Sequence record: PZ445551.1
Length of the DNA stretch: 64,000 nt
Reading direction: 5' to 3' (one strand)
Source of the DNA: a phage
Shown: positions 2,850 to 61,570 of the stretch, piece after piece
How the letters are laid out: each line of letters opens with the position of its first letter
Numbering within the stretch: the first letter of the stretch is position 1
Program-made: the position numbers and the translations under genes
Notes under the pieces: generated by a model
What the model saw: only the letters and a program-made list of their open reading frames with translations
Databases searched by the model: none
Told to the model about the DNA's origin: nothing

Positions 2850-3044
2850 ATGGCGCTTAAAAAATTAACAAGCAATACTCGTTGGGATGAAATCGACGGG
2901 GAAGTATACATTTTCGCCCGTAAACCAGGTGATCAAAAATGGTCAAAGGCTTTTACTTGCCACCCTGCAACAATAGATCTAATAAAAAGTAAAGGTTTAC
3001 GTGAAGCAGTAGCGAGAAGTTTACTGATCCCTTATAAAAAATAG
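2850..3044 (+). CDS. hypothetical protein (64 aa)
   Basis: track ORF trimmed to ATG 2850 after RBS aaaagagaaatc. Confidence 0.5.
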   Translation: MALKKLTSNTRWDEIDGEVYIFARKPGDQKWSKAFTCHPATIDLIKSKGLREAVARSLLIPYKK

Positions 3045-3107
3045 TTTGACAATATGCTGTTATCTGGTAAAGTGTACGACATAGGGCGGGGCAATAAGGC
3101 AACGCCC
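3045..3107 (+). promoter_or_regulatory. promoter + degenerate stem-loop cassette, copy 4
   Basis: TTGACA 3045-3050, -10 TAAAGT 3067-3072, GGGCGGGGCAATAAGGCAACGCCC variant hairpin. Confidence 0.45.
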
Positions 3108-3125
3108 ATTAATGAGGGTAGAATC

Positions 3126-3230
3126 ATGTTAGAGAAAATTTTCACGGTTGTAGTAGTTGGCCTGGCGTTATCGGTTGGATTGGTTGCAACTATGGCTAAC
3201 ATGATCCTATCTTCCCACGGTATTGGATAA
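3126..3230 (+). CDS. small membrane peptide (34 aa), not in track
   Basis: ATG 3126 after RBS gagggtagaatc; hydrophobic core VVVVGLALSVGLVATMA. Confidence 0.35.
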   Translation: MLEKIFTVVVVGLALSVGLVATMANMILSSHGIG

Positions 3231-3240
3231 GGTGAATCAA

Positions 3241-3456
3241 ATGATCACGAATAAGACAGGTAAAACAGAATTTTTACGCGGCTTGCAAATAGGTAAACCT
3301 GAGATCTGGCATTGCACTAAATCCGCGCATAATGAAATGAAAGATTTTACCGCTACTTTACAACGTGTTAAAATATCTATCACGCAGAAAAAAGCCTTGT
3401 TAGTAGTAGAAAACGAGATACCGCAAACCATTATTATTGTCGAGCGTACAGCATGA
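3241..3456 (+). CDS. hypothetical protein (71 aa)
   Basis: track ORF 3223..3456 trimmed to ATG 3241 with RBS aaggtg. Confidence 0.5.
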   Translation: MITNKTGKTEFLRGLQIGKPEIWHCTKSAHNEMKDFTATLQRVKISITQKKALLVVENEIPQTIIIVERTA

Positions 3457-3839
3457 AAACTGAAATCATTATTGAAATCATCAACGGTTATAAAGAAGCC
3501 TTTATTTTTGCTGAATCAGCCAGGGATCATGAAGGCTATTTTATTGATAACTTAGACGATTATGATTTTTCAGATCAAGCCCATCAGCGGATCATTCATG
3601 ACGTAGCGGCTTATTGTGATGCCAATGATGCTGCTATCTCTGAGGCAATGAGCGACGGCGCTACAGCAAACCAGATCGGGAATGATTTACATTTTACCCG
3701 TAACGGTCACGGCGTAGGCTTTTGGGATCGCCCTGAAATATACACTACTAACACCGCCAACCGCCTAACAAATGCAGCTAAATTAATGCCATCGGTGCAT
3801 GCTTACATTGGTGAAGATAATTTGATTTATATTGAATAA
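3453..3839 (+). CDS. hypothetical protein (128 aa)
   Basis: track ORF; ATGA start/stop overlap with upstream gene. Confidence 0.55.
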   Translation: MKTEIIIEIINGYKEAFIFAESARDHEGYFIDNLDDYDFSDQAHQRIIHDVAAYCDANDAAISEAMSDGATANQIGNDLHFTRNGHGVGFWDRPEIYTTNTANRLTNAAKLMPSVHAYIGEDNLIYIE

Positions 3840-19538: not shown

Positions 19539-19544
19539 CACATA

Positions 19545-19567
19545 AACCCGCTTCGGCGGGTTTTCTT
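19545..19567 (+). terminator. rho-independent terminator
   Basis: cccgc-ttcg-gcggg hairpin followed by TTTTCTT. Confidence 0.6.
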
Positions 19568-19834: not shown

Positions 19835-19915
19835 ATGACTTTACTAGAGAGTATCGTAGTGTTAATCATCTTTATCATTGTTGTCATAGGATATTTTACA
19901 GAAGACTAAAATAAA

Positions 19916-19948
19916 GCCCCCTAGAAGCGATTCTAGGGGCTTTTGTTT
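19916..19948 (+). terminator. rho-independent terminator at end of plus-strand module
   Basis: gcccctagaa-gcga-ttctaggggc followed by TTTTGTTT. Confidence 0.6.
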
Positions 19949-20010
19949 GCATTAGATAGGGAAACGTATTACTAAAATAAAAAGTGCGTTAGAATGCGTT
20001 ACAGGAGGTT

Positions 20011-20268
20011 TTAGGAATGCATAAAATCTTCTTCAGGGCAGGTTGAGAGATAAGAGATGCACGTTGGGACAACAACAACATTATCTTTAAGGTTTGCAAC
20101 CAAGCCTTTTGTAATTCCAGCCACTGCCCCGTTAATATCTGCTTGACGGATACCAAAACCTTGTTGTGCGGATAGATAACAAAATCCCTCACCTTTCTGT
20201 TGATTATTATTGAAGTAATAAACGTAGTGCATCATAAAATGGTCTTTAACGATTTGTTCTGTGGTCAT
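20011..20268 (-). CDS. hypothetical protein (85 aa)
   Basis: track ORF; RBS aggag upstream on minus strand. Confidence 0.5.
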   Translation of the reverse strand: MTTEQIVKDHFMMHYVYYFNNNQQKGEGFCYLSAQQGFGIRQADINGAVAGITKGLVANLKDNVVVVPTCISYLSTCPEEDFMHS

Positions 20269-20283
20269 AATATTCTCCTATAA

Positions 20284-20306
20284 GAAAAAAGGGGCTTTCG
20301 CCCCTT
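20284..20306 (-). terminator. rho-independent terminator after Sir2-like gene
   Basis: minus strand reads GGGGC-gaaa-GCCCC then TTTTTT; same hairpin sequence recurs at 31572 and 45005. Confidence 0.6.
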
Positions 20307-20313
20307 GGTCAAG

Positions 20314-21126
20314 TTACTTAGTCAAATGATCTTCTATCATTTTTATGAAAGCAGGATTGCTAAAAGCATCTGCTGCCTTTTCTCTATAAACAAAGACTCC
20401 TCTATCTTCGTAAAGAAGAGTTTCTTCGTAATTAATTCCTGGGTTAACAACAATCATTTTTATACCCATAGTAAGTGCAGGGAATAATTCCCAATTAAAA
20501 TTGATAACTTGGTTTGAACATCCTACTACAACAACCAAATCTTGCATGGTCAAAGTATCAAACAAGTGAGCCATATCTGCATACAAAGGTGCAGCCTCAC
20601 CAAAAAATACAACATTAGGCTTCACCCAGTTATAATCATCTATGTTTATACTATTGTAACCAATGTCTACCAGTGTTTTGTAATCTCCAGGGTGCATACG
20701 GTAAACTACTTCAGGAAGATACCCGTGCACGTGAATAACAGAATCCCTGTCCACACCTGCTCGCTCTAGTAGATCATCAACGTTTGTTGTCAAGTTTACT
20801 ACTTGGTTAGGATATTCCTTAAACCACTTTGCTATTTGAATATGTGCAGCATTAGGTTGTACATCTTTAAGCTCAACACGTCTTTTGTTATAAAATTCGT
20901 GTGTTTTGGCATACAAGTCCATACCGTTCTCGTCTACACCACCGACCACTGGAAGATCTGGAGATGTTCTCACACGATAACCTGCTTGGAAAGCTCCAAT
21001 ATCGCAGACCTCTTCTAAATCATATTCTTCCCACAAGGCACGACCACTATCTGTGTCTGTTCGGAATGTTCGAATCCCACTGTCTGCACTTAAACCTGCG
21101 CCACTAACAAAAATTACTCTTCGCAT
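20314..21126 (-). CDS. Sir2-family (sirtuin-like) NAD+-dependent protein, no zinc-ribbon cysteines
   Basis: N-terminal GAGLSADSGIRTFR matches sirtuin GAGxSxxxGIPxFR; VIHVHG catalytic His; 270 aa. Confidence 0.7.
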   Translation of the reverse strand: MRRVIFVSGAGLSADSGIRTFRTDTDSGRALWEEYDLEEVCDIGAFQAGYRVRTSPDLPVVGGVDENGMDLYAKTHEFYNKRRVELKDVQPNAAHIQIAKWFKEYPNQVVNLTTNVDDLLERAGVDRDSVIHVHGYLPEVVYRMHPGDYKTLVDIGYNSINIDDYNWVKPNVVFFGEAAPLYADMAHLFDTLTMQDLVVVVGCSNQVINFNWELFPALTMGIKMIVVNPGINYEETLLYEDRGVFVYREKAADAFSNPAFIKMIEDHLTK

Positions 21127-21683
21127 TCAATATCCTCTTCGTAATCATCATCCCAAGAAGATGCGTCGTAACGCTCTTCCTCTTCGAAATCCCAATTAAT
21201 TTCTACTCCAAAATCTAAAAACAATTTAACAATGTTTTCTGTAGAGTAGTATTTATCATAAGCGTCAGCTAGTTCCCAATACTTGTCACTCAATTTTTTA
21301 TATTTAGGATCATTATAGTCATAATCTACTTTATAACCATAATCATACATCTCTTGTTCAGCTTTAAGCATAGCTTCTGGTGTAAGAAGATTAGGGAACG
21401 GACGATTTCTTTCTTTTAACTTAGAAACAATCCAGTTTGCAACATTTGCCACTTCACCATCTTGATTATCACCTAAACAACTTGCATAATCTCCATCTTC
21501 GTAAGTGCCTAAATCCCCACAGACCACATGTACAATACTTGAATACGATCCACACGTTTCACAATCTGAAAAAGTGTCTACTGTTGTAATATCAATAGAT
21601 AAAACTGGTAAAGCCATAGCTTCTTTCACACAAGCCTCCTCATATAATAACATATCATCAAAACCCATATATCCTCCACACAA
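21114..21683 (-). CDS. acidic hypothetical protein co-transcribed with Sir2-like gene
   Basis: track ORF; 13-nt overlap with Sir2-like start; very acidic C-terminus. Confidence 0.5.
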   Translation of the reverse strand: MCGGYMGFDDMLLYEEACVKEAMALPVLSIDITTVDTFSDCETCGSYSSIVHVVCGDLGTYEDGDYASCLGDNQDGEVANVANWIVSKLKERNRPFPNLLTPEAMLKAEQEMYDYGYKVDYDYNDPKYKKLSDKYWELADAYDKYYSTENIVKLFLDFGVEINWDFEEEERYDASSWDDDYEEDIECEE

Positions 21684-21687
21684 ATAA

Positions 21688-21708
21688 AGCCCCTGATTGG
21701 GGCTTTGG
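21688..21708 (-). terminator. hairpin terminator (agcccc/ggggct)
   Basis: GC hairpin between the 21723 and 21683 genes; moderate T tract. Confidence 0.35.
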
Positions 21709-21722
21709 TTAAGTTTTACGGA

Positions 21723-22331
21723 TTATACCAGACTTTTAAGGTACTTGTCAAGGGCTTCTTGATCACCTTGACAAACATAGCAACGGAAGTCTTGAGCAGA
21801 AGGTTCTTTGTCCTCGTCCCAATCCCAATAGACAGTACCTTTATAACGTGAGCCTGGGAACTCGAAATATGCTGTATGAGTAATATGATGTGGGCCACCC
21901 CAAAACTGTGTAAAAGTAAATTGAGGATACGCTGCTTTAACTGTATTTTCAAACCAAGTTTTACGATCTAATGCTTCGTTTATAAAATAAGCATGGCGTT
22001 CCATTTCATCCCAGTTTTTCCAAACGCATTTTTCATCCAGAGAAAAAACAAAATCTTCACTGTTGAATTCATCTGTATCTTCCAAAATATCATAATCATG
22101 TGCACTAGGTATCCACCATCCAGCTTCTAATAGTGCTTTCACGGGTACAAAACCTTTTTCAGCATATTGATCAAATTCTTTTACTCTACGTACAGTGCAG
22201 TATTCATCTTCACCACCAATGTCCAGTAGAAAAGCACCTTTGCGTCTTGCTGCAAGACCATGTGTATCAAAAACTACAACACTACCTTCACCATCTTCAC
22301 GATCTACTTGATATGCAACTTTTTGAGTCAT
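21723..22331 (-). CDS. hypothetical protein (202 aa)
   Basis: track ORF 21723..22487 trimmed to ATG 22331 so it no longer overlaps the methyltransferase gene. Confidence 0.45.
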   Translation of the reverse strand: MTQKVAYQVDREDGEGSVVVFDTHGLAARRKGAFLLDIGGEDEYCTVRRVKEFDQYAEKGFVPVKALLEAGWWIPSAHDYDILEDTDEFNSEDFVFSLDEKCVWKNWDEMERHAYFINEALDRKTWFENTVKAAYPQFTFTQFWGGPHHITHTAYFEFPGSRYKGTVYWDWDEDKEPSAQDFRCYVCQGDQEALDKYLKSLV

Positions 22332-22455
22332 ATTACCCCCCAATGTACATGGGAAATTAACCAAAAGATAAATTCCCAAAAACACCAACCAAGAAAAGTT
22401 AATGGAATTATAAAAGCTATCAGAGCAGTCTTCCAGCCTTTCCACAATGTTTCCA

Positions 22456-23445
22456 CTATTCCTCCATACATTTAAGAATATGTGCAATGACAGGTATAGT
22501 CCAACCGTTACCTAACATCTTATATGCTTGTGTGTTACTACTCACTTTAAAGTAATCATCTGGAACACCTTGTAAGCGGCAACACTCTTTAACCGTTAAC
22601 TTTCTATAATGTACGCCTTCACTCAATTTTTCAAAGGCATCTAGATATCTTCCAGGTGGAATGTAGGCTAATAGTACGTCTTTAGGCACAGTCGTGAGGC
22701 AACGAGTTTTTTCACTGTCCTGAACTTCCAAACAATGTACCAAACGATCAGTTTTAGATGTACTACGTTTGCCATTTTCATTAATTCTACGCCCATATAT
22801 TGCTGCCGGATAAAAAACCAGTTGTCTGCGACTCTTTTCAAAATACTGTTCTATATTACCACCTTTGGCATAATTTGCATCTATGCAATAAGCCTTATCT
22901 CTGTCTACAATACTATCATCTTCAATTATATCTTGCAACACTTCATTGGTAATCTCCCAGGGTTTTATTTCCCAGTTGCACCAGTATAAACGTTGTCTAT
23001 TCTGTGCCGTGAAATCTGCGGAGTTAATGAATACGGGATCAACACCTAAGTAACTTGTGATCACGTTTTCCCACTCCATTTTCATCTTAACGTTTTCAAG
23101 CATGAACTTAACATTAGGATTAAACTTTTTAATATGTTCAAGAATTTCAACATATTCGAAGAATAGCTTAGATCGTGGATCTTGAAAGTTCAAACCCTTA
23201 CCAGAAGAAGAGAAGCCTTGACACGGACTACCACCTAACAAAAGATCAATTTCTCCCCACGGGATATCCCATTCTCTCCATTTTGTAACATCACCTAACT
23301 GAATAATATCTGGAAAATTTGCTTGGCTTTCAGCTACGGCAAATTTGTCTAATTCTGAAGCGTAATATGTATCTACTTCAATACCTGCACTTTTTAGCGC
23401 AAGCATTCCTCCTGACATACCATCAAAAAGACTTAAAACTTTCAT
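22456..23445 (-). CDS. dcm: DNA (cytosine-5)-methyltransferase
   Basis: motif I LFDGMSGG, motif IV GGSPCQGFS, motif VI ENV; 329 aa. Confidence 0.85.
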   Translation of the reverse strand: MKVLSLFDGMSGGMLALKSAGIEVDTYYASELDKFAVAESQANFPDIIQLGDVTKWREWDIPWGEIDLLLGGSPCQGFSSSGKGLNFQDPRSKLFFEYVEILEHIKKFNPNVKFMLENVKMKMEWENVITSYLGVDPVFINSADFTAQNRQRLYWCNWEIKPWEITNEVLQDIIEDDSIVDRDKAYCIDANYAKGGNIEQYFEKSRRQLVFYPAAIYGRRINENGKRSTSKTDRLVHCLEVQDSEKTRCLTTVPKDVLLAYIPPGRYLDAFEKLSEGVHYRKLTVKECCRLQGVPDDYFKVSSNTQAYKMLGNGWTIPVIAHILKCMEE

Positions 23446-23447
23446 TA

Positions 23448-23858
23448 TTACTTCTTCTCCTTAACACTAGCTGGTAATTCTGCCTTGAGGCAGAAGTTTA
23501 AACGGTAAGCCTCATTCTCATTTAAAAGTACAGATTCACACGATAACCAGAACAAGAGATCCTCAATACCAGGACTGTTAAGCCAACAGTGCAGAAGAGA
23601 ATGTTGTTCTATATCAATGTAATTTAGTAACAAGGCTTGTAAGGCGTAACTAGTTCCTGTCGTTTTTGCTTTTTCAAGGATGATATTGTGTTTACTAACA
23701 ACTTTCTTCCTAAGACCAAACCATTTATTAACAACAACAGTCTCTTCTTGTAGTTGTTTTCTTATTTTCTCACATTCTTTAACTACAATCTGCATCTTAT
23801 CCACTGCTGATTGAAGTTGTTCTTTTGTTGGGTTTACAAAATAATCACTATAATACAT
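23448..23858 (-). CDS. hypothetical protein (136 aa)
   Basis: track ORF. Confidence 0.5.
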   Translation of the reverse strand: MYYSDYFVNPTKEQLQSAVDKMQIVVKECEKIRKQLQEETVVVNKWFGLRKKVVSKHNIILEKAKTTGTSYALQALLLNYIDIEQHSLLHCWLNSPGIEDLLFWLSCESVLLNENEAYRLNFCLKAELPASVKEKK

Positions 23859-23914: not shown

Positions 23915-23936
23915 AAAAAACCCGCCGAAGCGGGTT
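23915..23936 (-). terminator. bidirectional hairpin terminator
   Basis: cccgc-cgaa-gcggg flanked by A-run and T-run. Confidence 0.55.
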
Positions 23937-23940
23937 TATA

Positions 23941-31592: not shown

Positions 31593-32093
31593 TTAGTTAT
31601 AAGCGTCTAATGTTCCAGTTTTAAGTACCTGAATTACACGCTCTGCGCGATTAGGCGTTTGGCGATACCATTTACTTTTACGTAAATTTATAGAGGCTTG
31701 AGTATAATATGAATTACTCACTAAAGTCAAGCTATTTTTGAAAGATTCTGCACCTTTCAATCCCATTTGAAATACCATATTGATAATAGCCATTTTACGA
31801 TTAGGACTTACTTTATCGTAAATAGGAGATAATATGGTACTTGAATGGATTTGTTGTATCGCTTTCTTTACGTCACTTTCAAAGATTCTTCTAGCTTCCG
31901 CTTCAGTAATAACTCCATTGGTTTTTCTACCTACTAAGTTATCAAGAATGCGTATAGCTTCTGCTTTATCTTTGAGTTTTGTCAGAAGGTGTCCAATACC
32001 AACTGTCCAATACCCTTCGGTATCAGGATATACAGTTAGCTTTAGTCCTTCATCAAAACGTAACATATCAAACACATCAACTACTTTAGCCAT
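31593..32093 (-). CDS. T4-type lysozyme (endolysin, GH24)
   Basis: MLRFDEGLKLTVYPDTEGYWTVGIGHLLTK matches the T4 e catalytic E/D/T region. Confidence 0.9.
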   Translation of the reverse strand: MAKVVDVFDMLRFDEGLKLTVYPDTEGYWTVGIGHLLTKLKDKAEAIRILDNLVGRKTNGVITEAEARRIFESDVKKAIQQIHSSTILSPIYDKVSPNRKMAIINMVFQMGLKGAESFKNSLTLVSNSYYTQASINLRKSKWYRQTPNRAERVIQVLKTGTLDAYN

Positions 32094-32105
32094 GTTTTCC
32101 TTATA

Positions 32106-32249
32106 TTAGTCGCCCTCCCCATGATCTAGCTCTTGAAACAGTAGGTGTTCAGGAGACATTTCACGTTTAGGCTTCGTCTTTTTAGTTTGGGACTTAAGCT
32201 CTGTTGCCAAAGCACGAGAAAAGATTTTACGTTTCTGTTTACCTTTCAT
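32106..32249 (-). CDS. small basic protein (47 aa), not in track
   Basis: ATG 32249 after RBS ggag; Lys-rich. Confidence 0.3.
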   Translation of the reverse strand: MKGKQKRKIFSRALATELKSQTKKTKPKREMSPEHLLFQELDHGEGD

Positions 32250-32253
32250 ATTG

Positions 32254-32520
32254 TTACTCCGCAATCTGAGCCATGAATTCACGTAGTTCAGAAAAACCTC
32301 CTACGTGGGTTAGCTGTTCACCATCTTCCACAAAAATCTGAGGAAATGTGCGTGGTAGAACACCTGTTTTCTCTAAAACCAGATTCTGAATCTGATCTAA
32401 AGAATAGTCTTCATCTAAGGTAAGGTATTTAAAATCCTGTTCACGCTGTTCTAGTAGAATCTTAGCGTTAGTGCAGAAAGGACAATTTGGTTTACCGTAG
32501 ATAATAAAATTCATTTTCAC
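32254..32520 (-). CDS. glutaredoxin/thioredoxin-like (NrdC/NrdH-type)
   Basis: CPFC active-site motif near N-terminus; 88 aa. Confidence 0.75.
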   Translation of the reverse strand: MKMNFIIYGKPNCPFCTNAKILLEQREQDFKYLTLDEDYSLDQIQNLVLEKTGVLPRTFPQIFVEDGEQLTHVGGFSELREFMAQIAE

Positions 32521-33347
32521 TCCTTGTTTAAAAGTATAGTTAAAGTTCTTACAATACCGCTATCAACACTTCGCGGATTTAAAGTAGGATCTGTTTTTAA
32601 ATAAGATGTTGCTGGTCTGACTGCTTTTGAATTATAGGTTGAAGCAGATACAGGATTAACTGTAACAGATAAATCTATAACAAGAAATATCTTTCGTGCA
32701 AAATCATACCAAGAAATATAATCTGCACCTGCATAGTGTACAATTTTACTATTTACACCATCTTTTACAAGTTTAAAAATTGTTTCTGCAAGATCAGGTG
32801 CATAAGTAGGACATGATAAATGATCACATACTACATTAAATTCTTTTTGACCACCGTTGTAGCGTTCCAACATAGTTTTCAAAAAGTTATGTCCAAATTC
32901 ACTATAAACAGAAGCTGTTCGGATAATAAGTGCTGTAGGACAAACTGTTTGTACTAAAGTTTCACCTAATTGTTTACTATAACCGTAGGTGTTCAAGGGG
33001 TTTGTTTTACTATCTTCTGTACCAGCAACATGCCCATCAAAAACATAGTCTGTTGAAATATGTACAAACTGTATCAGTAAATCATTACATGCTTTGGCAA
33101 TGTTTGTTGCACCGTATGCATTAACATTTATACAGGTGTTAACATCTTCTTCAGCTTTATCTACTGCCGTGTAAGCCGCACAATTCACAACAACATCAGG
33201 CACATGCTGTACAAGACTATTCATAACATCTTTAAAGTTGGTAATGTCTACATCACTTGCTTCAATCAAAATAACATCTTCGGGCGCAACTTTTGCCAAA
33301 GACTGTCCTAATTGACCTTTTGAACCAAAGACTAAAAATTTTGTCAA
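32517..33347 (-). CDS. rmlD: dTDP-4-dehydrorhamnose reductase
   Basis: N-terminal GxxGQLG Rossmann motif; position after rmlC. Confidence 0.75.
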   Translation of the reverse strand: MTKFLVFGSKGQLGQSLAKVAPEDVILIEASDVDITNFKDVMNSLVQHVPDVVVNCAAYTAVDKAEEDVNTCINVNAYGATNIAKACNDLLIQFVHISTDYVFDGHVAGTEDSKTNPLNTYGYSKQLGETLVQTVCPTALIIRTASVYSEFGHNFLKTMLERYNGGQKEFNVVCDHLSCPTYAPDLAETIFKLVKDGVNSKIVHYAGADYISWYDFARKIFLVIDLSVTVNPVSASTYNSKAVRPATSYLKTDPTLNPRSVDSGIVRTLTILLNKE

Positions 33348-33898
33348 AATATGATCTCCTTTAGTGTTTTGGCTTCCTGATCTTTTTGTGACAAGATAGG
33401 TTTAAAATTAATATCATTAAAGATTAAATCAAAACCCCAATCTATATTGATATCTGGATCATTCCACGCAAGACTACACTCTGAAGTCGGATCGTAATAT
33501 TCTGTACATTTGTATTCAAAATCAGCAATATCACTAATCACAACAAAGCCATGAGCGAAACCAGGAGGAATCCAAAATTGTGTTTTATTCTTTTCAGATA
33601 AGAGAACACCTACCCATTCTCCAAATGTTGGACTACCAACCCTAATATCTACAGCAACATCATAAACTTCACCACGAACACAGCGTACTAACTTCCCTTG
33701 TGGGTTTTTCTTTTGAAAATGAAGCCCACGTAGAACTCCTCGGATAGAACGTGAATGGTTATCTTGGACAAAGTTTTGTTTACCTATGTATTGATCATAT
33801 AAAGCCTGATTAAAACTTTCTAAGAAAAAGCCACGTTCATCTCCATAAACGTCAGGTTGAATGATCAACAAGTCTTCGATTTTTGTTGCTTGAATCAT
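33344..33898 (-). CDS. rmlC: dTDP-4-dehydrorhamnose 3,5-epimerase
   Basis: cupin-type RGLHFQ region; 184 aa. Confidence 0.8.
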   Translation of the reverse strand: MIQATKIEDLLIIQPDVYGDERGFFLESFNQALYDQYIGKQNFVQDNHSRSIRGVLRGLHFQKKNPQGKLVRCVRGEVYDVAVDIRVGSPTFGEWVGVLLSEKNKTQFWIPPGFAHGFVVISDIADFEYKCTEYYDPTSECSLAWNDPDINIDWGFDLIFNDINFKPILSQKDQEAKTLKEIIF

Positions 33899-33910
33899 TT
33901 AATTCCCCTT

Positions 33911-34780
33911 TTATTTTAATTTAAGTAAATACTTACCGTAGTCTGTTTTACTTAAAACCTCTCCAGAACTTTTTACAGAGTCTAAAGTAATCCATTCATT
34001 TTTAAAAGCAATCTCTTCCAGGCATGCAACCTTCATACCTTGTTGCTTCTCTATTGCATGAACAAATTGAGATGCTTCCATAAGACTTTCATGTGTTCCT
34101 GTATCCAGCCAAGTGAAACCTCTTCCTAGCTTACAGACACGTAAAGCCTTTTCTTTCCAGTACATCTCATTTATATCTGTGATCTCTAACTCCCCTCTAG
34201 CAGAAGGCTTAACGCTTTTAGCTTTCTGTATAACAGAATTATCGTAAAAGTACAAGCCTGTAATTGCATAGTTGCTTTTTGGTGCTTTTGGTTTTTCTTC
34301 AATACTTACCACTGTACCTTCAGAATCAAACTCAACAACACCAAATCTTTCAGGATCATTTACGTGATACCCAAAAATATTAGCTCCACCATTCTTTTCA
34401 ATATGTTCTTTAGCAGAATCTAAAATGCTACCAAAACTCTGACCAAAGAATAAATTATCACCTAGCACAAGTGCTACAGAATCTTCACCAATAAAGTTCT
34501 CACCAATAATAAACGCTTCTGCTAAACCTTTTGGGCTATCCTGTACTGCATACTGTAGGGAAATACCAAAAGAAGAACCGTCACCTAGAAGATTTACAAA
34601 ATTAATTTGATCTTCTGGTGTTGTAATTATTAGTATTTCCCTAATTCCAGAAAGCATTAGGACAGAGAGTGGATAATAAATCATAGGTTTATCGTAAATT
34701 GGTAATAGTTGTTTACTAACCCCTTTAGTAACTGGGTAAAGTCTTGTTCCACTACCACCTGCTAAGATAATACCTTTCAT
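33911..34780 (-). CDS. rmlA: glucose-1-phosphate thymidylyltransferase
   Basis: [19 protein letters not shown]-terminal signature. Confidence 0.85.
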
Positions 34781-48607: not shown

Positions 48608-49330
48608 TTAAGCAATGATTGCTGCGATATTAGGTTTAACAAAGGTAGATGGTTTCATAATTTTACCTTTGTCATCAAAGAATACGTACACCTTTTGAAC
48701 TTCGTTATATACAGCATGTACCCCAGTATAAGAACCTTCTGCACGATCTTTGCTTCGCATCTCGATAGCATCGCATTCTTTTTCAAGAGCTTCAATAATA
48801 TCCTTAGTTTCCCAAATAGCCAGGATTTGCTTCTTGGTAGGATACTTGGACTCATTGCTATTCAACACTTCACGCATAACCTTCTTCTCGTTATAGACAG
48901 AACGTACCAAAGTATCTCGTGCCATACGTGTAAGTGTAAGAGACATTAGGGCAAATTGCAAGTCATTTTCTACCATTTTATCAAATTCAATGATAACATC
49001 GTAAATGTTTTCTGCCAGAACATCCCCTGTCGGCATTTCCAGAGCTTTATCAACACCTTCTTTACCAAAGAACATAAATGCCAGGTAGGAGGCTACCACA
49101 AAAATATCTGCTGCTGCATCAAGTAATTCAACGTGATCATTTTCCTGTGCTGCTGCTTGGAACTCTTTAAGTTCTTCTCGTACAAAAGAAAGTTGAGCTT
49201 CAAACATCTCTTGAGTAAATTCTGGAGTTACTCCACCACGTGCCTTAGCATTCCAAGCAACAATTTGATCGGCAGCTTTGATAAAGAAGCTATTGTCCAC
49301 TTTTACTTGTTTGAAAAAATTCTCGATCAT
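48608..49330 (-). CDS. MazG-like nucleoside triphosphate pyrophosphohydrolase
   Basis: EExxE...ELLDAAADIFVV metal-binding region. Confidence 0.55.
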   Translation of the reverse strand: MIENFFKQVKVDNSFFIKAADQIVAWNAKARGGVTPEFTQEMFEAQLSFVREELKEFQAAAQENDHVELLDAAADIFVVASYLAFMFFGKEGVDKALEMPTGDVLAENIYDVIIEFDKMVENDLQFALMSLTLTRMARDTLVRSVYNEKKVMREVLNSNESKYPTKKQILAIWETKDIIEALEKECDAIEMRSKDRAEGSYTGVHAVYNEVQKVYVFFDDKGKIMKPSTFVKPNIAAIIA

Positions 49331-51384: not shown

Positions 51385-51789
51385 TTATTGTAGCTTAAGT
51401 GAACTGCGAAGACGTTTTTCTTGCTGATCACGAATATGTTTTGGAACCTCATGAATTGAATCGTTACCGTGCCTATTTTCAACTACTAAAGAGATAACTT
51501 GATAACCAAACTCTTCAGCAAGAGTTAAATAAGGTTTAAGTTCTTTCTCTGTGGTTGAAGTGTTAGAGACAATAATCTTTTTAATATTAGATGCCATAGC
51601 ATCACGAACAATACTCTGACACCATGCGTGTGCTTTACCTACATTCTCTGGCTTCCAATCGTAAACACCACTTTCTGTGTAATGATATTGATCTGCCTCA
51701 CAGATAGGCCAATAACCTTCAGAAATAATTTCTGCTACTGTAGATTTACCTGCACCTGAAACACCACGTAAGATGATAAGTTGTTTCAT
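51385..51789 (-). CDS. P-loop polynucleotide kinase-like protein
   Basis: Walker A GVSGAGKST; 134 aa; directly upstream-adjacent to the RNA ligase-like gene. Confidence 0.55.
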   Translation of the reverse strand: MKQLIILRGVSGAGKSTVAEIISEGYWPICEADQYHYTESGVYDWKPENVGKAHAWCQSIVRDAMASNIKKIIVSNTSTTEKELKPYLTLAEEFGYQVISLVVENRHGNDSIHEVPKHIRDQQEKRLRSSLKLQ

Positions 51790-52722
51790 TTAGCCTCCAA
51801 AGAAGTTTTCTATTTCTTTACGTCTCTCTTGTGGATCGAGAGCAGCCCATTGAGCCTTCGTAAATTTATTTCGAAGCCATTCTAGCAAAGTATAATATTC
51901 TTCGTCAACAATTTGTTTAGCATTGTTTGGGTTGTCCCAAATCATATCCCACTTCTTATTGCCACCACGCATAAGGAATTTCTTAGCAAGATAGTATGGT
52001 GACTTAATCTTTAACAGTAAGTTAAACGGGTAGTTTGTTTCACGAACAACAAACCCTTCGTGTTTACAATGTTTAGACATTTCAACAACATCTGAAAATT
52101 TAATCATCGGATAAACTTCAGGACGTTTAAACTTTGTAATAGATGCAATCCCATCAAGAACACCTTCAGGTAACATGAAACTTGTCCCATCAAGATTTTG
52201 AATTCTTGCTCCAATTAAGTATGCGCCTGGTTCTTCTTCGACAATATGTGGATCAGAAGGATCACAGATTTCAAAAAGAAAAGTTGCTTTTGCACTTTCT
52301 GTCCACTTAATGAAATACTCTATGTCGTCACACTCGGAAACAATACGGTTCTTTGCCATAATTGCAAAATCTGATTCTAGACTCCCTGTTGTTGATACAA
52401 CAAGTTTCCCTTTGTACACACCTACAGATGCCATAAAACCGTTTACTTTACGGACAGCATCTACAATTTCGTCTGCTGGAAGATCTGTACCATTTTCAAA
52501 ACGATTAAAGATTTTAGTAAAAGGCCAAATAACAACATTGTCTTCTGAGTCAACAACCAACCCACGACAATCTAAAAGTCGTTTGTCAACGTTCCACAAG
52601 TTATCCCAGAATACATTGTTTTTGTATTTAAGTACAGCAAGACCAGCATACTCTCCAGATTTAACTTCTTTTTTATGCACTAAACCTTTTGCAATCAGGT
52701 CATCACAATTGAACTTAGCCAC
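51790..52722 (-). CDS. RNA ligase-like nucleotidyltransferase (Rnl2-type candidate)
   Basis: motif I KVNGFM, EGFVVRE, KIKSPYY. Confidence 0.55.
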   Translation of the reverse strand: MAKFNCDDLIAKGLVHKKEVKSGEYAGLAVLKYKNNVFWDNLWNVDKRLLDCRGLVVDSEDNVVIWPFTKIFNRFENGTDLPADEIVDAVRKVNGFMASVGVYKGKLVVSTTGSLESDFAIMAKNRIVSECDDIEYFIKWTESAKATFLFEICDPSDPHIVEEEPGAYLIGARIQNLDGTSFMLPEGVLDGIASITKFKRPEVYPMIKFSDVVEMSKHCKHEGFVVRETNYPFNLLLKIKSPYYLAKKFLMRGGNKKWDMIWDNPNNAKQIVDEEYYTLLEWLRNKFTKAQWAALDPQERRKEIENFFGG

Positions 52723-52723: not shown

Positions 52724-53275
52724 TTAATCTCCTTTGATTATCTTATGATGATCTACAACAATAATATCACGCTTATCCATAATAGAAATGATTTCGTCAA
52801 AATGCAAGATTTTCCCGTGTGCATCCCAACCAACATCCAACATTTTCCCATACAAATGATCAGGGAATGATCCGTGAGAGTGTCCGTGTAGCATGATTGA
52901 TCCATGCCCTTGTTTATTCCAGGCAGCCATAGGGTAATGACTTAAGACGAAGAACAGCTTCTGATATTTCACTTCGTCATAATACACAACTTCTCCATAC
53001 TCTGCAAGCACTTTTCTGTGTTTACTATAATCATGGTTCCCAACACAGTAAGTAATATCCCCTTGGAGACGGGAAGCAATCTTACGGGTATCTTCTTCAG
53101 TCCCGAAACAGAAGTCCCCAAGATGGTACATCTTTACTCCTGGTGTTGTGGCACATTTATTCCATGCTTCGATCAGTGCTTCTGTCATATGCTCCATATC
53201 TTCCCACGGACGATATTCAGGAGCAAACTCTCGGATACGTTTGTGCATAAAATGCAAATCACTTGTAATAAACAT
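52724..53275 (-). CDS. calcineurin-like metallophosphoesterase (candidate 2',3'-phosphatase)
   Basis: SDLHF, HLGDFCFG, VGNHDY motifs. Confidence 0.65.
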   Translation of the reverse strand: MFITSDLHFMHKRIREFAPEYRPWEDMEHMTEALIEAWNKCATTPGVKMYHLGDFCFGTEEDTRKIASRLQGDITYCVGNHDYSKHRKVLAEYGEVVYYDEVKYQKLFFVLSHYPMAAWNKQGHGSIMLHGHSHGSFPDHLYGKMLDVGWDAHGKILHFDEIISIMDKRDIIVVDHHKIIKGD

Positions 53276-53792: not shown

Positions 53793-54134
53793 TTAATAGT
53801 TAACACGTTTAATTTCAACACCATAGGATGAAATAAAATTTTCCTTAGCTAACATATATTTACCAGCAGCAGAAGGATTTGATGTATGAACATAGATAGT
53901 TTTAAGAGCATCCCATTCACCCGCGTACAACATACATTCTACGTCTAAGAACGCATGATATCCTTCTTGATCTTCTCCAAGATCATTATCGAAGTGTATC
54001 TCTGAGATATTATTGAAATTATCTTCATCTGAAACAAAAGATAACCAATCCTCAAAAGATTTTAACCAAATGGCATCCTCATAACCATAATCTTTAGGAT
54101 CTCTTAAATCGTCTAACCAAAGAATTTTAGCCAC
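53793..54134 (-). CDS. hypothetical acidic protein (113 aa)
   Basis: track ORF. Confidence 0.5.
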   Translation of the reverse strand: MAKILWLDDLRDPKDYGYEDAIWLKSFEDWLSFVSDEDNFNNISEIHFDNDLGEDQEGYHAFLDVECMLYAGEWDALKTIYVHTSNPSAAGKYMLAKENFISSYGVEIKRVNY

Positions 54135-56170: not shown

Positions 56171-57064
56171 ATGAAAGTTAGTATTCTACATGGTGTTGAC
56201 TGTTATGTTACTGATGTAGACGTTAAAGTCTTTACATTCTCTGGTGGAGAACAACATGTTCAACTAGATACGAATCTATCAGGTTTCAATCATGCTACAG
56301 ACAGAATCTTACTCTCTTTAGAAGTAAGATCTGCTAAAGACTTGATGACTTTGGTTATGACTAAGAATGCATTGGACAATATGCTATATCATAAACCATA
56401 TTGTGTTGATTTACTCATGCTGTATGTGCCATATGCACGACAAGACAGAGTGTGTGAACCTGGGGAAGCATTCGGAGTTAAAGCATTTGCTTCTATAATT
56501 AATTCATTAAATTTCTCACGTGTTATCGTTGCTGATCCACATAGTGATGTTACTCCAGCAGTGTTTGACAGACTCTGTGTAATACCTCAAGAAGAGATTG
56601 CTTACGAAACTTTAAAATGGAAGTTACGTATGGAGAATTTTGCTCTTGTTAGCCCTGATGGTGGTGCTCTTAAGAAAATATTTAAATTATCTAAGAAAAT
56701 GTCTTTAGATGTGTTCTGTGCAGAGAAGGTTAGAGATACCGCAACAGGTGCTATTGTTCGTACAGACATTTCTGTACAGGATTTCAATAAGCGTAACCTG
56801 ATGATCGTAGATGATATCTGTGATGGTGGTAGAACTTTTATCGAATTGGCTAAAGTGCTACGTGCTCGTAACGCAGGTAAGATTGAGTTATATGTTACAC
56901 ACGGTATCTTTTCTAAAGGTCTTAAAGAGTTAAGTGAGCACTTTGACTGCATTCATTCTCTTAATGTGTGGGAAGATAACATCCAAGAAGATTCCGGTGT
57001 TCTTGTTAAGAATCAGTCAGATTTGCAACAACAAATTGTATCTCCATACGTGTGGAATTTTTAA
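56171..57064 (+). CDS. ribose-phosphate pyrophosphokinase (Prs) family protein; candidate ADP-ribose pyrophosphate synthetase (Adps-like)
   Basis: VPYARQDR, VSPDGGA, MIVDDICDGGRT, VTHGIFS motifs of the PRPP synthetase fold. Confidence 0.75.
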   Translation: MKVSILHGVDCYVTDVDVKVFTFSGGEQHVQLDTNLSGFNHATDRILLSLEVRSAKDLMTLVMTKNALDNMLYHKPYCVDLLMLYVPYARQDRVCEPGEAFGVKAFASIINSLNFSRVIVADPHSDVTPAVFDRLCVIPQEEIAYETLKWKLRMENFALVSPDGGALKKIFKLSKKMSLDVFCAEKVRDTATGAIVRTDISVQDFNKRNLMIVDDICDGGRTFIELAKVLRARNAGKIELYVTHGIFSKGLKELSEHFDCIHSLNVWEDNIQEDSGVLVKNQSDLQQQIVSPYVWNF

Positions 57065-57074
57065 ATAATAAGTG

Positions 57075-57103
57075 TTGACAACAGGGAGTATGCTTAGTAA
57101 GAT
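57075..57103 (+). promoter_or_regulatory. sigma70-like promoter TTGACA-17-TAAGAT overlapped by 7-bp inverted repeat GGGAGTA/TACTCCC
   Basis: read directly upstream of the NAMPT-like gene. Confidence 0.5.
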
Positions 57104-57135
57104 ACTCCCACACTAACAAACAAGGAGACATAACT

Positions 57136-58884
57136 ATGAATATTTTTGCACCTTTTGCTACTGATTGGTATAAACCTGGTCACAAGCAGATGTACAACCA
57201 AAATACAAAACTCATTTTCTCTAATTTAACTCCTCGTAATGATAAAAACTTTGCACACTATGCAGATCGTGAAGCACGTGGTGTGATTGTTTTAGGTATT
57301 CGTCGAGCAGTCACCGATGCCCTTGTAACTATGTGGGACAGCTTCTTTAAAATGTCTCGTAGTGCAGCAGTAAATAAATTTTATCGTATGTCTAAAAATG
57401 CATTAGGTGCTTCTGCTCCTTCTGCTGAATGTTGGGGAGAATTGCACGATTTAGGTTATCTTCCGCTAGAAGTTCGATCTCTGCCAGAAGGTGTTTTGTG
57501 TCCTATTGGTGTTCCTGTGTTTACTGTGCATAACACTTTAGAAAAATTCTTTTGGTTAACTAACTATGTGGAAACACTATTGTCAGATGAAACTTGGAAG
57601 ACAATGACTAACGCCACAGCAGCTTTTCAGTATAAGCGTATCGCTATGGCGTATGCGATGGCAACGTGTGATAACATTGATCACGTTAATTTCCAGTGTC
57701 ATGACTTTAGTCTACGTGGCTTAAGCAATATCGAAGATGGTTATAAGAGTGGTATCGCTCATTTGGCATCTTTCACAGGAACAGATAATATTCTGGCTAT
57801 TGAAACTGTGCATGATTACTATGGTATTGATTATGATCAATTTGTTGCAGGTTCTATTCCGGCAACAGAACATTCAGTAGCAACGACTAACATTGGAGCT
57901 ATTGTTGAAGATCTGAAGAAACATTTCCCACATCTTAAAGATGATGTTGATGGGCTTCGTTATGTAGCAGAGAAAGAGTTTCTTCGCCGCTATATTGAAG
58001 AAATTGTCCCAGAAGGTTTTTGTTCATATGTAGCAGATTCTTATGATTACTGGGCTGTCTTGACTCGCATTCTGGTAGAATTGAAAGAGTCCATTATGTC
58101 ACGAAATGGTCGTCTTGTTATTCGTCCAGATTCAGGAGATCCGGTTAAAGTTGTTGCAGGATACAATGTTGAATCTTTTGATAACTATGAAGACCTTTTA
58201 AATAATGGTATTGCTACAGCCACTGAAGTAGTACATTTGGCTGATGTTAATAAGTATTACAATGTTCTTCAGGATTGCAGTGTTGCTGATTGTATCGATG
58301 AAACTTATGAGATTCCTTATTGTGAAGCAGTAGGTTCTATTCAAATCCTTTGGGAAGTGTTTGGCGGTACTATCAACCGAAAAGGCTACAAGGTTCTTGA
58401 TCAGCACATCGGTATGATTTATGGTGATTCTATTACTGTTGAACGAGAACACGAAATCTTACGCCGACTGAAGAAGAAAGGCTTTGCTGCTTCCAATATT
58501 GTATTTGGTGTTGGTAGTTATACTTATCAGTTCAATACACGAGATACTTTTGGTTTTGCTGTTAAAGCAACAGGTAGTATCATCGGTGAACACGAAATTT
58601 TGGTAAGTAAGGAGCCTAAAACTGATCCTGGTAAACGCTCTGCAAAAGGTTTTATTAAGGTTGTTAAGGATACAAATGGTAAACTTTCTCTTGTGGATAA
58701 TCTTTCTTTTAAAGATATCCAAGATGAAGACAATGAGTTAAAAGTTATCTTCAGGGATGGTACGGTTATTACACCACAAGTAGAAGGACGTGATGAAACA
58801 TTTACTGATATCCGTAACCGTGTTGATGTAGAGGTTCTTCGTACTATGGGAACCATCCAGGTTGACTACATAAAAACTTCGTGA
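57136..58884 (+). CDS. nicotinamide phosphoribosyltransferase (NAMPT/NadV) family protein; candidate nicotinamide ADPR transferase (Namat-like)
   Basis: N-terminal TDWYKPGHKQMY matches the NAMPT TDSYK.TH motif; 582 aa. Confidence 0.75.
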   Translation: MNIFAPFATDWYKPGHKQMYNQNTKLIFSNLTPRNDKNFAHYADREARGVIVLGIRRAVTDALVTMWDSFFKMSRSAAVNKFYRMSKNALGASAPSAECWGELHDLGYLPLEVRSLPEGVLCPIGVPVFTVHNTLEKFFWLTNYVETLLSDETWKTMTNATAAFQYKRIAMAYAMATCDNIDHVNFQCHDFSLRGLSNIEDGYKSGIAHLASFTGTDNILAIETVHDYYGIDYDQFVAGSIPATEHSVATTNIGAIVEDLKKHFPHLKDDVDGLRYVAEKEFLRRYIEEIVPEGFCSYVADSYDYWAVLTRILVELKESIMSRNGRLVIRPDSGDPVKVVAGYNVESFDNYEDLLNNGIATATEVVHLADVNKYYNVLQDCSVADCIDETYEIPYCEAVGSIQILWEVFGGTINRKGYKVLDQHIGMIYGDSITVEREHEILRRLKKKGFAASNIVFGVGSYTYQFNTRDTFGFAVKATGSIIGEHEILVSKEPKTDPGKRSAKGFIKVVKDTNGKLSLVDNLSFKDIQDEDNELKVIFRDGTVITPQVEGRDETFTDIRNRVDVEVLRTMGTIQVDYIKTS

Positions 58885-59723: not shown

Positions 59724-59809
59724 GCAAGTGTGGTGGAATTGGTGATACACATTGTGCTTAAAACGCAACGCTTAAATGCTTGAGGGTTCGAATCCCTCCA
59801 CTTGCACCA
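59724..59809 (+). tRNA. tRNA-Leu(TAA), type II
   Basis: acceptor GCAAGTG/CACTTGC, anticodon loop CTTAAAA, long variable arm, T-arm GAGGG-TTCGAAT-CCCTC. Confidence 0.75.
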
Positions 59810-59824
59810 ACACCTAAAAATATC

Positions 59825-59853
59825 TTGACATTTACTTAGTTTTTTGTTATAGT
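59825..59853 (+). promoter_or_regulatory. sigma70-like promoter TTGACA-17-TATAGT
   Basis: read directly; 11 nt upstream of the tRNA-like element. Confidence 0.5.
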
Positions 59854-59864
59854 TACTATGAAAA

Positions 59865-59946
59865 CGGGGTGTATCTCACCTGACTTCTAATCAGGCGTTA
59901 ACCGAGTAATTGGAGTATGCAGGTTCGAATCCTGTCACCCCGGCCA
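59865..59946 (+). tRNA. atypical tRNA-Arg(TCT)-like element lacking a D-arm
   Basis: perfect acceptor CGGGGTG/CACCCCG, T-arm GCAGG-TTCGAAT-CCTGT, anticodon hairpin CCTGA-CTTCTAA-TCAGG, but only 7 nt between acceptor and anticodon stem and a 23-nt insert before the T-arm. Confidence 0.4.
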
Positions 59947-60009
59947 AAAAGTTTTAAAAACTACTTGACAAGCAAGATAGTTTTATGTTAGATTTAAAGT
60001 ATAATAACT

Positions 60010-60099
60010 GGAAGGTAGGGCGCAGCGGTGCGCAACCAGGTTTGAACCCTGGCCCATTGTAGCGATACGGTGATGGTTCGACTCCATTATCTTCCTCCA
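60010..60099 (+). tRNA. tRNA-Ser(TGA), type II
   Basis: acceptor GGAAGGT/ATCTTCC, anticodon loop TTTGAAC, long variable arm, CCA encoded. Confidence 0.75.
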
Positions 60100-60117
60100 A
60101 ATTCTCTTAGGAGCTTT

Positions 60118-60270
60118 ATGAATTATAAAACTATTGGACAGGTTGTTACCGGAGTTAAGATTGTAAATAATAAAGTTGTTTATGAGTATTCTAATCTTCA
60201 ACAATCTGAAGATGGTAAGAATATTCGTATGGTAAAAACAGAACAAAAAGATTCCGGTTGTTTTGAATAA
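60118..60270 (+). CDS. small hypothetical protein (50 aa) embedded in tRNA array
   Basis: track ORF 60070..60270 trimmed to ATG 60118 after RBS aggag so it no longer overlaps tRNA-Ser. Confidence 0.45.
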   Translation: MNYKTIGQVVTGVKIVNNKVVYEYSNLQQSEDGKNIRMVKTEQKDSGCFE

Positions 60271-60278
60271 TTAAAAAC

Positions 60279-60364
60279 GGTAGATTGGTGAAATGGTAGC
60301 CACAACAGTTTGCTAAACTGTCGTCGGAAACGGCGTGTAGGTTCAAGTCCTACATCTACCGCCA
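60279..60364 (+). tRNA. tRNA-Ser(GCT), type II
   Basis: acceptor GGTAGAT/ATCTACC, anticodon loop TTGCTAA, long variable arm, T-arm GTAGG-TTCAAGT-CCTAC. Confidence 0.8.
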
Positions 60365-60498
60365 AGTTATCTTTAATGTAGCTTGTAATCTTACTTTAGC
60401 AGAGTAAATCTTCGGCAAGTGGCGGTAACCACTTTACCGATACCCCAATACTTCATAGCTAAGTGCCGCAAACACTGGCTATTTTAAAGATAATTTAT

Positions 60499-60574
60499 AC
60501 ATCGTTAGCTTAGTTGGTAGAGCAAGGGGCTTTTAACTCCAAGGTCGAAGGTTCGAATCCTTCACGATGTACCA
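60499..60574 (+). tRNA. tRNA-Lys(TTT)
   Basis: acceptor ACATCGT/ACGATGT, D-arm GCTT..GAGC, anticodon loop CTTTTAA, T-arm GAAGG-TTCGAAT-CCTTC. Confidence 0.85.
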
Positions 60575-60579
60575 AACAC

Positions 60580-60666
60580 GTAGGTATCGCATAGCGGCAA
60601 TTGCTGGAGACTGTAAATCTCCTGCCCTTCGGGGCTTCGTTGGTTCGAGTCCAACTACCTGCACCA
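60580..60666 (+). tRNA. tRNA-Tyr(GTA), type II
   Basis: anticodon arm GGAGA-CTGTAAA-TCTCC, variable-arm hairpin GCCCC-TTCG-GGGC, T-arm GTTGG-TTCGAGT-CCAAC. Confidence 0.8.
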
Positions 60667-60673
60667 AATTAAA

Positions 60674-60758: not shown

Positions 60759-60837
60759 AATAGTGCTTGTAGAGTTAATAGAAACCTCTAGAATTTTCTA
60801 GAATTGTAGGTATCAAATCCTACCAAGCAAATATTTT

Positions 60838-61563: not shown

Positions 61564-61570
61564 ATATTTA

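Follow-up and report, generated by a model that had tools for sequence, protein, structure and literature searches.

A zinc-less CobB-like sirtuin and its acidic upstream partner in a phi92-like Escherichia phage: a probable two-gene unit and a tentative case for an NAD+-dependent deacylase

Here we describe a sirtuin gene and its surroundings in a 64,000-nucleotide stretch of phage DNA (sequence record PZ445551.1), which as a whole is called the window below and whose positions are counted from its first letter. The gene encodes a 270-amino-acid (aa) protein which is a genuine sirtuin of the canonical deacylase lineage. Our preferred reading, which we hold tentatively, is that this protein is an active NAD+-dependent lysine deacylase of the class III type (CobB/SIRT5), produced from a host-type promoter. 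It has none of the usual zinc-ribbon cysteines, and its gene lies directly behind that of a small acidic protein, referred to here as the partner. The two central features are the following.

20314-21126, minus strand: sirtuin gene, 270 aa, CobB-like, class III-type and zinc-less (Pfam SIR2, phrog_2162, AF2 model, Foldseek)
21114-21668, minus strand: partner gene, 184 aa from the ATG at 21668 (an open reading frame starting with TTG reaches 21683); phrog_9509, function unknown

Bases 19900-23500, which contain both genes, match Escherichia phage VivaForever (PP925843.1) at 100% identity, position w of the window being position 94105-w on the opposite strand of that record. Their identity to some 60 phi92-like phages (genus Justusliebigvirus, subfamily Stephanstirmvirinae) is 97-99%. 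The phage which carries the locus is virulent.

Results

Fold and conserved residues of the sirtuin

A preliminary description, made from the letters of the window, had assigned the protein to the sirtuins by its NAD-binding signature, and this assignment was borne out at each level of comparison. The protein contains GAGLSADSGIRTFR at residues 9-22 and VIHVHG at residues 130-135, and it matches the Pfam family SIR2 (PF02146) with E=1.3e-22 and 81 bits, the gathering cutoff being 24, and phrog_2162 with 9e-105 over 269 residues. When the Protein Data Bank (PDB) was searched with phmmer, the best match was CobB (1s5p, 1.4e-18), followed by Sir2Af1/2, Sir2Tm and SIRT5. The AF2 model, for which the alignment held 57 homologues, reached a pLDDT of 90.5 and a pTM of 0.87, and Foldseek again ranked CobB first among PDB structures (6.8e-17, TM 0.72/0.85), then Sir2Af1 and SIRT5. 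There were 278 PDB matches at E <= 0.001, and the best 50 of the 278 are all canonical sirtuins. The top matches by both sequence and structure (CobB, Sir2Af1/2, SIRT5 and Sir2Tm) are all characterised deacylases. Profile search and structure prediction therefore uphold the Sir2 fold.

The key residues are G9-A10-G11, F21-R22, Y79/R82/R83, T114-N115-V116-D117, H134, F174-F175-G-E177, G202-C203-S204 and N228. In the 57 homologues, which go down to 55% identity, the cofactor loop (G9-A10-G11, S13, S16, F21-R22) is invariant, and so are Y79, R82, R83, N115, D117, the catalytic H134-G135 (HxHG), F174-F175 and E177 of the FGE loop, G202/S204 and N228. The GAG motif, S13, S16, F21-R22, N115, D117, H134, FGE, G202/S204 and N228 are also mostly kept in the versions of T5, rV5-like, KVP40-like and jumbo phages. 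All of the NAD+-binding and catalytic residues are thus present with the exception of the Gln of TQNID, which is Thr114 here. Three further changes are specific to this clade: GTS has become GCS, Cys41 is invariant, and the VYP segment, which binds the peptide, is replaced by VINFNW.

A Tyr-x-x-Arg motif is the signature of class III sirtuins; it binds the carboxylate of succinyl- and malonyl-lysine and confers desuccinylase/demalonylase activity. The phage sequence FYNKRR (Y79-N-K-R82) aligns with FYNARR of CobB (Y92/R95), which points to acyl groups with a negative charge, for example succinyl or malonyl, among the substrates. Compared with CobB of E. coli and Salmonella (1S5P, 6RXJ), the phage sirtuin shares the motifs GAGxSxxSGIRTFR, FYNxRR, NxD, HxHG and FGE, but it is only 26-38% identical, has no zinc cysteines, carries an insert of about 21 residues in the small domain and reads TTNVD/GCS/VINFNW where CobB has TQNID/GTS/VYPAAG. 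The human and zebrafish SIRT5, which are desuccinylases/demalonylases, resemble it in structure (Foldseek E of about 1e-13 to 1e-14) and in the Tyr-x-x-Arg for acidic acyl groups, whereas the sequence identity is about 20% and SIRT5 has a four-cysteine zinc site. The scores against the CobB equivalogs of NCBIfam (NF040867, NF001755 and others) were far under the cutoffs (84.7 against 320 bits, 83.7 against 318), and the NCBIfam subfamily model gave 105.6 against 243 bits; the protein is therefore not a CobB orthologue and belongs to a separate clade. This is the phage clade of phrog_2162; between the sirtuin and its T5-like, rV5-like and Mydovirus counterparts the identity is 47-60%.

The preliminary description had also noted the missing zinc-ribbon cysteines, and rightly so. 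Between H134 and F174 (VVFFGE), the stretch where the zinc module would lie, the sirtuin has no cysteine and its 121 homologues have no conserved one; the two CxxC motifs of this module are likewise absent from the sirtuins of T5, rV5-like, KVP40-like and jumbo phages. Residues 135-172 were predicted as beta-strands with a pLDDT of 95-97. Since these strands are modelled confidently without cysteines, the ribbon appears to be retained without the metal, and the model suggests that a metal-free beta-ribbon has replaced the zinc-cysteine ribbon. The insert in the small domain (about residues 51-71) was found in 75 of the 122 family members.

Transcription units

The signals and genes on which the reading of the locus depends are the following.

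21722-21751, minus strand: consensus sigma-70 promoter, TTGACA-N18-TATAAT with a TG extended -10 (12/12 match)
21686-21706, minus strand: hairpin with a U-rich tail between the 202-aa and partner genes (-13.3 kcal/mol, z = -2.3)
20289-20306, minus strand: intrinsic terminator-like hairpin with a T-run directly 3' of the sirtuin stop (-13.1 kcal/mol, z = -3.4)
21723-22331, minus strand: 202-aa gene (phrog_8514)
22328-22456, minus strand: 42-aa open reading frame between the methyltransferase and 202-aa genes, overlapping both
22456-23445, minus strand: C5 methyltransferase gene, 329 aa, Dcm-like (PF00145, 2e-43)
20011-20268, minus strand: 85-aa gene 3' of the sirtuin, function unknown (phrog_15991), syntenic with the pair in relatives
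19918-19939, both strands: strong bidirectional terminator (-17.4 kcal/mol) where the gene blocks of the plus and minus strands converge

The 202-aa gene and the C5 methyltransferase gene lie upstream of the pair, as had been described before. The proposal that the 202-aa gene, the partner and the sirtuin form a three-gene operon is nevertheless unsupported, because between the 202-aa and 184-aa genes there are a promoter and a hairpin, both conserved, which leaves a unit of two genes. The promoter (21751-21722) sits within the last codons of the 202-aa gene. The hairpin (21706-21686) has an eight-pair, G+C-rich stem, and behind it the partner gene begins with its Shine-Dalgarno site and ATG; the hairpin is likely to end transcription of the methyltransferase unit, to form a stem-loop at the 5' end of the sirtuin transcript, or both. 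The TTGACA and TATAAT/TATAGT hexamers and the hairpin are kept across five diverged phages, as in EmilieFrey, phAPEC8 and two metagenomic Phapecoctavirus-like contigs, relatives whose encoded proteins are merely 38-70% identical to those of the window and in which the hairpin differs in its loop and stem length.

At the other end, the hairpin and T-run at 20306-20289 agree with the earlier statement that a terminator follows the sirtuin; phAPEC8 has an equivalent hairpin after its sirtuin gene and phage Paula has an annotated terminator there. The sirtuin ATG is at 21126 and the partner TAA at 21114-21116, which gives the 13-nt overlap reported earlier for the window. As a conserved trait this overlap did not hold, since the genes are separated by an 11-nt gap in EmilieFrey and Paula and overlap by 16 nt in the Phapecoctavirus-like contigs. 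Further upstream, the 42-aa reading frame begins within TAGTG, where the methyltransferase stops, and ends within ATGA, where the 202-aa gene starts.

Units were assigned from sequence signals, namely promoter, hairpin and overlap. The most economical arrangement would be that the 202-aa gene belongs to the methyltransferase unit and is translationally coupled to it through the 42-aa reading frame. A first unit would then run from a promoter at 23913-23885 through a 136-aa gene, the methyltransferase, the 42-aa reading frame and the 202-aa gene, and a second, bicistronic one would start at the 21751-21722 promoter and comprise the 184-aa gene and the sirtuin. Co-transcription of the sirtuin with the acidic upstream gene, which the preliminary description had assumed, is accordingly retained as probable. 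The 85-aa gene may be reached by read-through before the terminator at 19918-19939. The GC skew changes its sign at about 20 kb, at this terminator, and again at about 56 kb. A 20-nt hairpin (AAACCCGC-TTCG-GCGGGTTT) of the bidirectional terminator-like kind occurs in identical copies at 19544-19563 and 23918-23937, with a TTGACA promoter directly after the latter copy.

The acidic partner protein

The partner almost certainly starts at the ATG at 21668, which is preceded by a GGAGG Shine-Dalgarno site and agrees with GenBank; the alternative TTG at 21683 lies in the T-tract of the preceding hairpin. The length of 189 aa given in the preliminary description should therefore be corrected to 184 aa, while the acidity stated there is real: the pI is 4.05, there are 46 D+E against 14 K+R, and 17 of the last 35 residues are D or E. 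The protein family is small: a database of 5.8 billion proteins contains six 90%-identity clusters of it, and when 1.84 billion proteins were scanned in full with HMMER, 19 representatives came up. In 16 members, down to 23% identity, C36-x-x-C39, G59, C64 and the acidic C-terminal tail are invariant, and the nearest relatives also retain a C-terminal EEEC motif. The AF2 model (pLDDT 84.8) has an N-terminal beta-sheet, on which the CxxC knuckle sits, and a core of helices, and its tail is disordered (pLDDT below 50); a fold search of the PDB with this model gave no match.

In phi92-like and Phapecoctavirus-like phages the partner gene always directly precedes the sirtuin gene, and the two overlap or almost overlap; from these sequences they are probably co-transcribed. 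The sirtuins of T5-, rV5- and KVP40-type phages are without such a partner. As the pairing is confined to one lineage, functional coupling is no more than possible. Could the two proteins be strictly linked? This was ruled out by distant relatives of the partner in jumbo phages, which have no adjacent sirtuin and are found in our collected loci as follows.

L013 (pEa_SNUABM_12), 3001-3528: distant partner relative
L014 (PBECO4), 2977-3369: distant partner relative
L015 (RaK2), 2998-3387: distant partner relative

A gene annotated 'starvation-inducible DNA-binding protein/transcriptional regulator' stands directly upstream of the partner relative in pEa_SNUABM_12 and RaK2, and two genes upstream of it in PBECO4. 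Two ideas about a contact between partner and sirtuin were considered and rejected. That the partner supplies the zinc ribbon in trans was dropped because the small domain of the sirtuin is itself modelled as a confident metal-free beta-ribbon and because most phages with the same zinc-less sirtuin have no partner. The insert of about 21 residues was likewise rejected as the docking site for the partner, as it is also present in T5-like phages which lack the partner.

Neighbouring genes

The block formed by the 202/217-aa gene, the partner, the sirtuin and the 85/90-aa gene keeps its synteny in phi92-like and Phapecoctavirus-like phages; the 85-aa gene has a 46% identical counterpart in the Phapecoctavirus-like relative L006. 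For the 202-aa protein we found no match in Pfam, PDB or PADLOC and no relation to the partner protein, and its family consists of 23 clusters, every one of them from the same phage subfamily. The product of the 42-aa reading frame (VETLWKGWKTALIAFIIPLTFLGWCFWEFIFWLISHVHWGVI) is very hydrophobic; it is probably a small peptide of the membrane whose translation is coupled to that of the neighbouring genes.

The methyltransferase slot 5' of the 202-aa gene is exchangeable. It is occupied here by the 329-aa Dcm-like C5 methyltransferase, and in phAPEC8 (L011, 1624-2307) and L006 by a 227-aa protein which is unrelated to it, although its annotation also reads DNA methyltransferase. In the Phapecoctavirus-like loci L006, L007 and L008, an 89-aa gene of the Acb2_Tad1_hairpin family (PF24729; 1415-1684) lies about 3.5 kb upstream of the partner-sirtuin pair. 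This family comprises signal sponges which counter CBASS and Thoeris; tblastn of the window gave no homologue of the gene. According to the GenBank annotation of the matching record (31904-34381 there), 15 tRNA genes are clustered at 59724-62201 on the plus strand of the window.

NAD+ pair and RNA-repair module

Two other groups of genes in the window bear on the possible role of the sirtuin.

56171-57064, plus strand: Prs-like gene (PF00156/PF14572)
57136-58884, plus strand: Nampt-like/NAPRTase-family gene (PF04095, 2.6e-37)
53805-54125, minus strand: cREC homologue, RNA end-healing/sealing module
52724-53275, minus strand: calcineurin-like phosphoesterase, same module
51790-52722, minus strand: Rnl1-type RNA ligase, same module
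51385-51789, minus strand: AAA_33 kinase, same module
48608-49330, minus strand: MazG/PRA-PH-like gene, same module

GenBank names the first two genes ribose-phosphate pyrophosphokinase and nicotinamide phosphoribosyltransferase. They are adjacent, as are the genes for Adps and Namat of the NARP1 pathway, and by this adjacency and the Pfam matches they can be taken for a NARP1-type Prs-like/Nampt-like pair. The Prs-like protein of the window is merely 36-40% identical to the Prs-like proteins of Felix O1-type phages, the group to which phage Bas63 presumably belongs. The Bas63 pair rebuilds NAD+ from ADP-ribose and nicotinamide and counters SIR2-HerA and other NAD-depleting defences (preprint 10.1101/2024.02.11.579819). 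The preliminary description had linked an NAD+ pair in the same genome to the sirtuin. The pair is indeed there, at 56171-58884, on the opposite strand and about 35 kb from the sirtuin. Its Prs-like gene occurs in 1338 records, many of them from Pseudomonas, Vibrio and Mycobacterium phages, and the sirtuin in 982, mostly from enterobacterial phages. With this distance and these very different distributions, a dedicated link between the sirtuin and the NAD+ pair is unsupported. Whatever the sirtuin reaction, NARP1 could all the same reuse its nicotinamide and, once deacylated, its ADP-ribose.

The RNA module (48.6-54.1 kb) is about 27 kb away from the sirtuin, and the immediate neighbours of the sirtuin are of unknown function. 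In the rV5-like phage AlexBoehm, by comparison, the sirtuin lies between cREC (PF20274, 4.3e-14) and MazG-like genes, beside RNA ligase, polynucleotide kinase and phosphoesterase. In T5 and the KVP40-like ValKK3 the neighbours differ again and are not RNA-repair genes. The RNA-repair neighbourhood is thus real for a part of the sirtuin clade and does not hold here.

Discussion

The sirtuin described here is not a new gene. VivaForever and its relatives carry it under the names "Sir2 NAD-dependent deacetylase", "sirtuin family protein" and "putative Sir2-like transferase" (Phi92_gp038), and tblastn detected it in 982 of 50,697 phage records (about 2%), among them phi92-like phages, Phapecoctavirus, Mydovirus, T5-like Demerecviridae (the "cobb" of T5), rV5-like Vequintavirus, KVP40-like Vibrio phages and jumbo phages. 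Skliros et al. described in 2016 a Sir2/CobB of KVP40-type phages which has no zinc ligands and keeps the catalytic His, which co-occurs with NAMPT/NMNAT and which is common to T5 and SPC35 (PMC5107563). Iyer et al. defined "a distinct clade" of phage sirtuins in 2022 and, from the gene neighbourhoods in rV5, Mydo, SP15 and jumbo phages, predicted a KptA/Tpt1-like removal of RNA 2'-phosphate (PMC9503650). The gene was therefore already annotated in this genome, its zinc loss and the link to NAD salvage had been published, and a role in RNA repair had been predicted. With the phage clade (phrog_2162; T5, rV5, Mydo, SP15, KVP40-type) our protein shares the zinc-less small domain, C41, TTNVD and GCSNQVINF; its genomic context differs, as it lies outside the RNA-ligase/cREC/kinase neighbourhood and is paired with a lineage-specific acidic CxxC…C protein.

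How might such a protein act? In our reading, host RNA polymerase would transcribe the partner-sirtuin unit from the consensus sigma-70 promoter, with the sirtuin as the second gene, and the sirtuin would presumably be expressed early in infection. It would then probably strip acyl groups from host proteins, phage proteins or both, which would release nicotinamide and O-acyl-ADP-ribose. The partner, made just before, could be a lineage-specific accessory, perhaps a regulator, an adaptor or a substrate. In favour of deacylation, the sirtuin keeps the catalytic His, the residue which the ADP-ribosyltransferases of the SirTM class lack (PMC4518038). Several points weigh against it. The Gln of TQNID is Thr across the whole clade, and the VYP segment is replaced by the clade-specific VINFNW, so that something other than an ordinary acyl-lysine peptide may be the substrate. 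The scores stay far under the cutoff of every CobB equivalog in NCBIfam, and in the literature searched we found no biochemical study or assay of any member of the phage clade. Host CobB restricts the growth of T4 and lambda (PMC4271551), so a phage copy with the same job is not obviously useful. Iyer et al. moreover argue from gene neighbourhoods for RNA 2'-phosphate as the substrate (PMC9503650), and His134 and YxxR would suit this chemistry equally well. The restriction of phages by CobB, and the stimulatory complex which CobB forms with Prs (preprint 10.1101/2020.12.09.417477), are leads for experiments and not evidence on the phage sirtuin.

The prediction of Iyer et al. stays a serious rival because a His and an anion-binding YxxR also suit an attack by RNA 2'-phosphate, although we regard it as unlikely. 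The enzyme would transfer ADP-ribose from NAD+ onto the 2'-phosphate at a broken tRNA or mRNA end, and the phosphate would leave as ADP-ribose 1'',2''-cyclic phosphate; this is the job of Tpt1/KptA, done beside the ligase, kinase, cREC and phosphoesterase of the phage. Our sirtuin is 47-60% identical to the rV5-like, Mydovirus and T5-like proteins which underlie the prediction (PMC9503650), that of AlexBoehm is embedded in just such a neighbourhood, and the window encodes the same module of cREC, phosphoesterase, Rnl1, kinase and MazG-like genes. On the other hand, here and in Phapecoctavirus about 27 kb separate the sirtuin from the module, and it belongs to a promoter-terminator unit of its own with an unrelated partner, the immediate neighbours in T5 and KVP40-like phages are not RNA-repair genes, and the FGE peptide-binding loop is conserved. 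To our knowledge no sirtuin has been shown to act on an RNA 2'-phosphate, which also counts against this role. It may be, in a broader version which we consider quite doubtful, that the clade does not deacylate proteins at all and performs the imidate-type chemistry of sirtuins on an anionic non-protein nucleophile, taking off RNA 2'-phosphates as an analogue of Tpt1, and that in phi92-like phages and Phapecoctavirus it has been rewired into a two-component unit with a zinc-knuckle, acidic-tailed partner which targets or gates the sirtuin. If this were true, the enzyme would be without precedent in two respects, as a sirtuin demonstrated to work on the ends of nucleic acids and as one with a dedicated partner encoded by the phage.

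Is it possible that the partner is itself the substrate? The sirtuin could be a mono-ADP-ribosyltransferase for protein or nucleic acid, acting on a host target or on the 184-aa partner, as SirTM (class M, with macrodomain and GcvH-L) acts on the operon-encoded GcvH-L. The NAD+ site is intact, a small acidic protein with conserved cysteines is encoded directly upstream in what looks like translational coupling, and an operon-encoded sirtuin substrate has a precedent (PMC4518038); in both systems a sirtuin stands in an operon beside a small acidic protein which is a possible substrate. SirTM, however, has Gln for the catalytic His, a zinc domain and a macrodomain link (PMC4518038), and the phage sirtuin has none of these: H134 is invariant and the annotation of the flanking 15 kb holds no macrodomain gene. 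A SirTM-like system was rejected for these reasons. The retained His makes ADP-ribosyl transfer less likely in general; as the partner is missing from most phages with this sirtuin and has distant relatives without one, we think this explanation improbable. Still far less probable is the suggestion of the preliminary description that the protein is a hijacked defence effector or a decoy; as an NAD+-consuming effector, a captured defence SIR2 or a catalytically dead decoy it would deplete NAD+, or mimic or titrate components of a host SIR2 defence. A SIR2 domain in a phage which also carries a NARP1-type pair might be read in this way, as might the loss of the zinc cysteines, if taken for degeneration. 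With the defence NADases (ThsA, DSR1/2, SIR2-HerA, SIR2-APAZ) the protein indeed shares the Rossmann-type, NAD+-binding SIR2 superfamily and the lack of a four-cysteine zinc ribbon. It differs from them in having deacylase structural neighbours (the best 50 of the 278 Foldseek matches), CobB, Sir2Af1 and SIRT5 being the best, in belonging to the canonical family PF02146, in keeping the catalytic His and the class III YxxR motif, and in lacking sensor or partner domains. Among the PADLOC models the sole match was PDC-S65 with E = 0.0066 over 36 residues, and no SLOG, HerA or pAgo gene is annotated near the sirtuin. Without a meaningful PADLOC match it is not a SIR2 of the Thoeris, DSR, HerA or pAgo type, and a defence origin was rejected. 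The distributions of the sirtuin and the Prs-like gene also speak against such a role. Nor is it a dead decoy, since the catalytic residues do not vary across more than 100 sequences, which are clearly under purifying selection.

The sirtuin itself adds little that is new, as the gene was annotated and its peculiarities had been published. What is added here is a corrected operon structure, the exclusion of the defence-effector reading and the identification of a lineage-specific acidic CxxC…C protein as the partner in the same unit. About 2% of sequenced phages, among them T5 as a model phage and many candidates for therapy, encode a zinc-less CobB-like sirtuin. Deciding between deacylation, RNA repair and ADP-ribosylation would show how virulent phages use NAD+ and whether the zinc module of sirtuins is dispensable.

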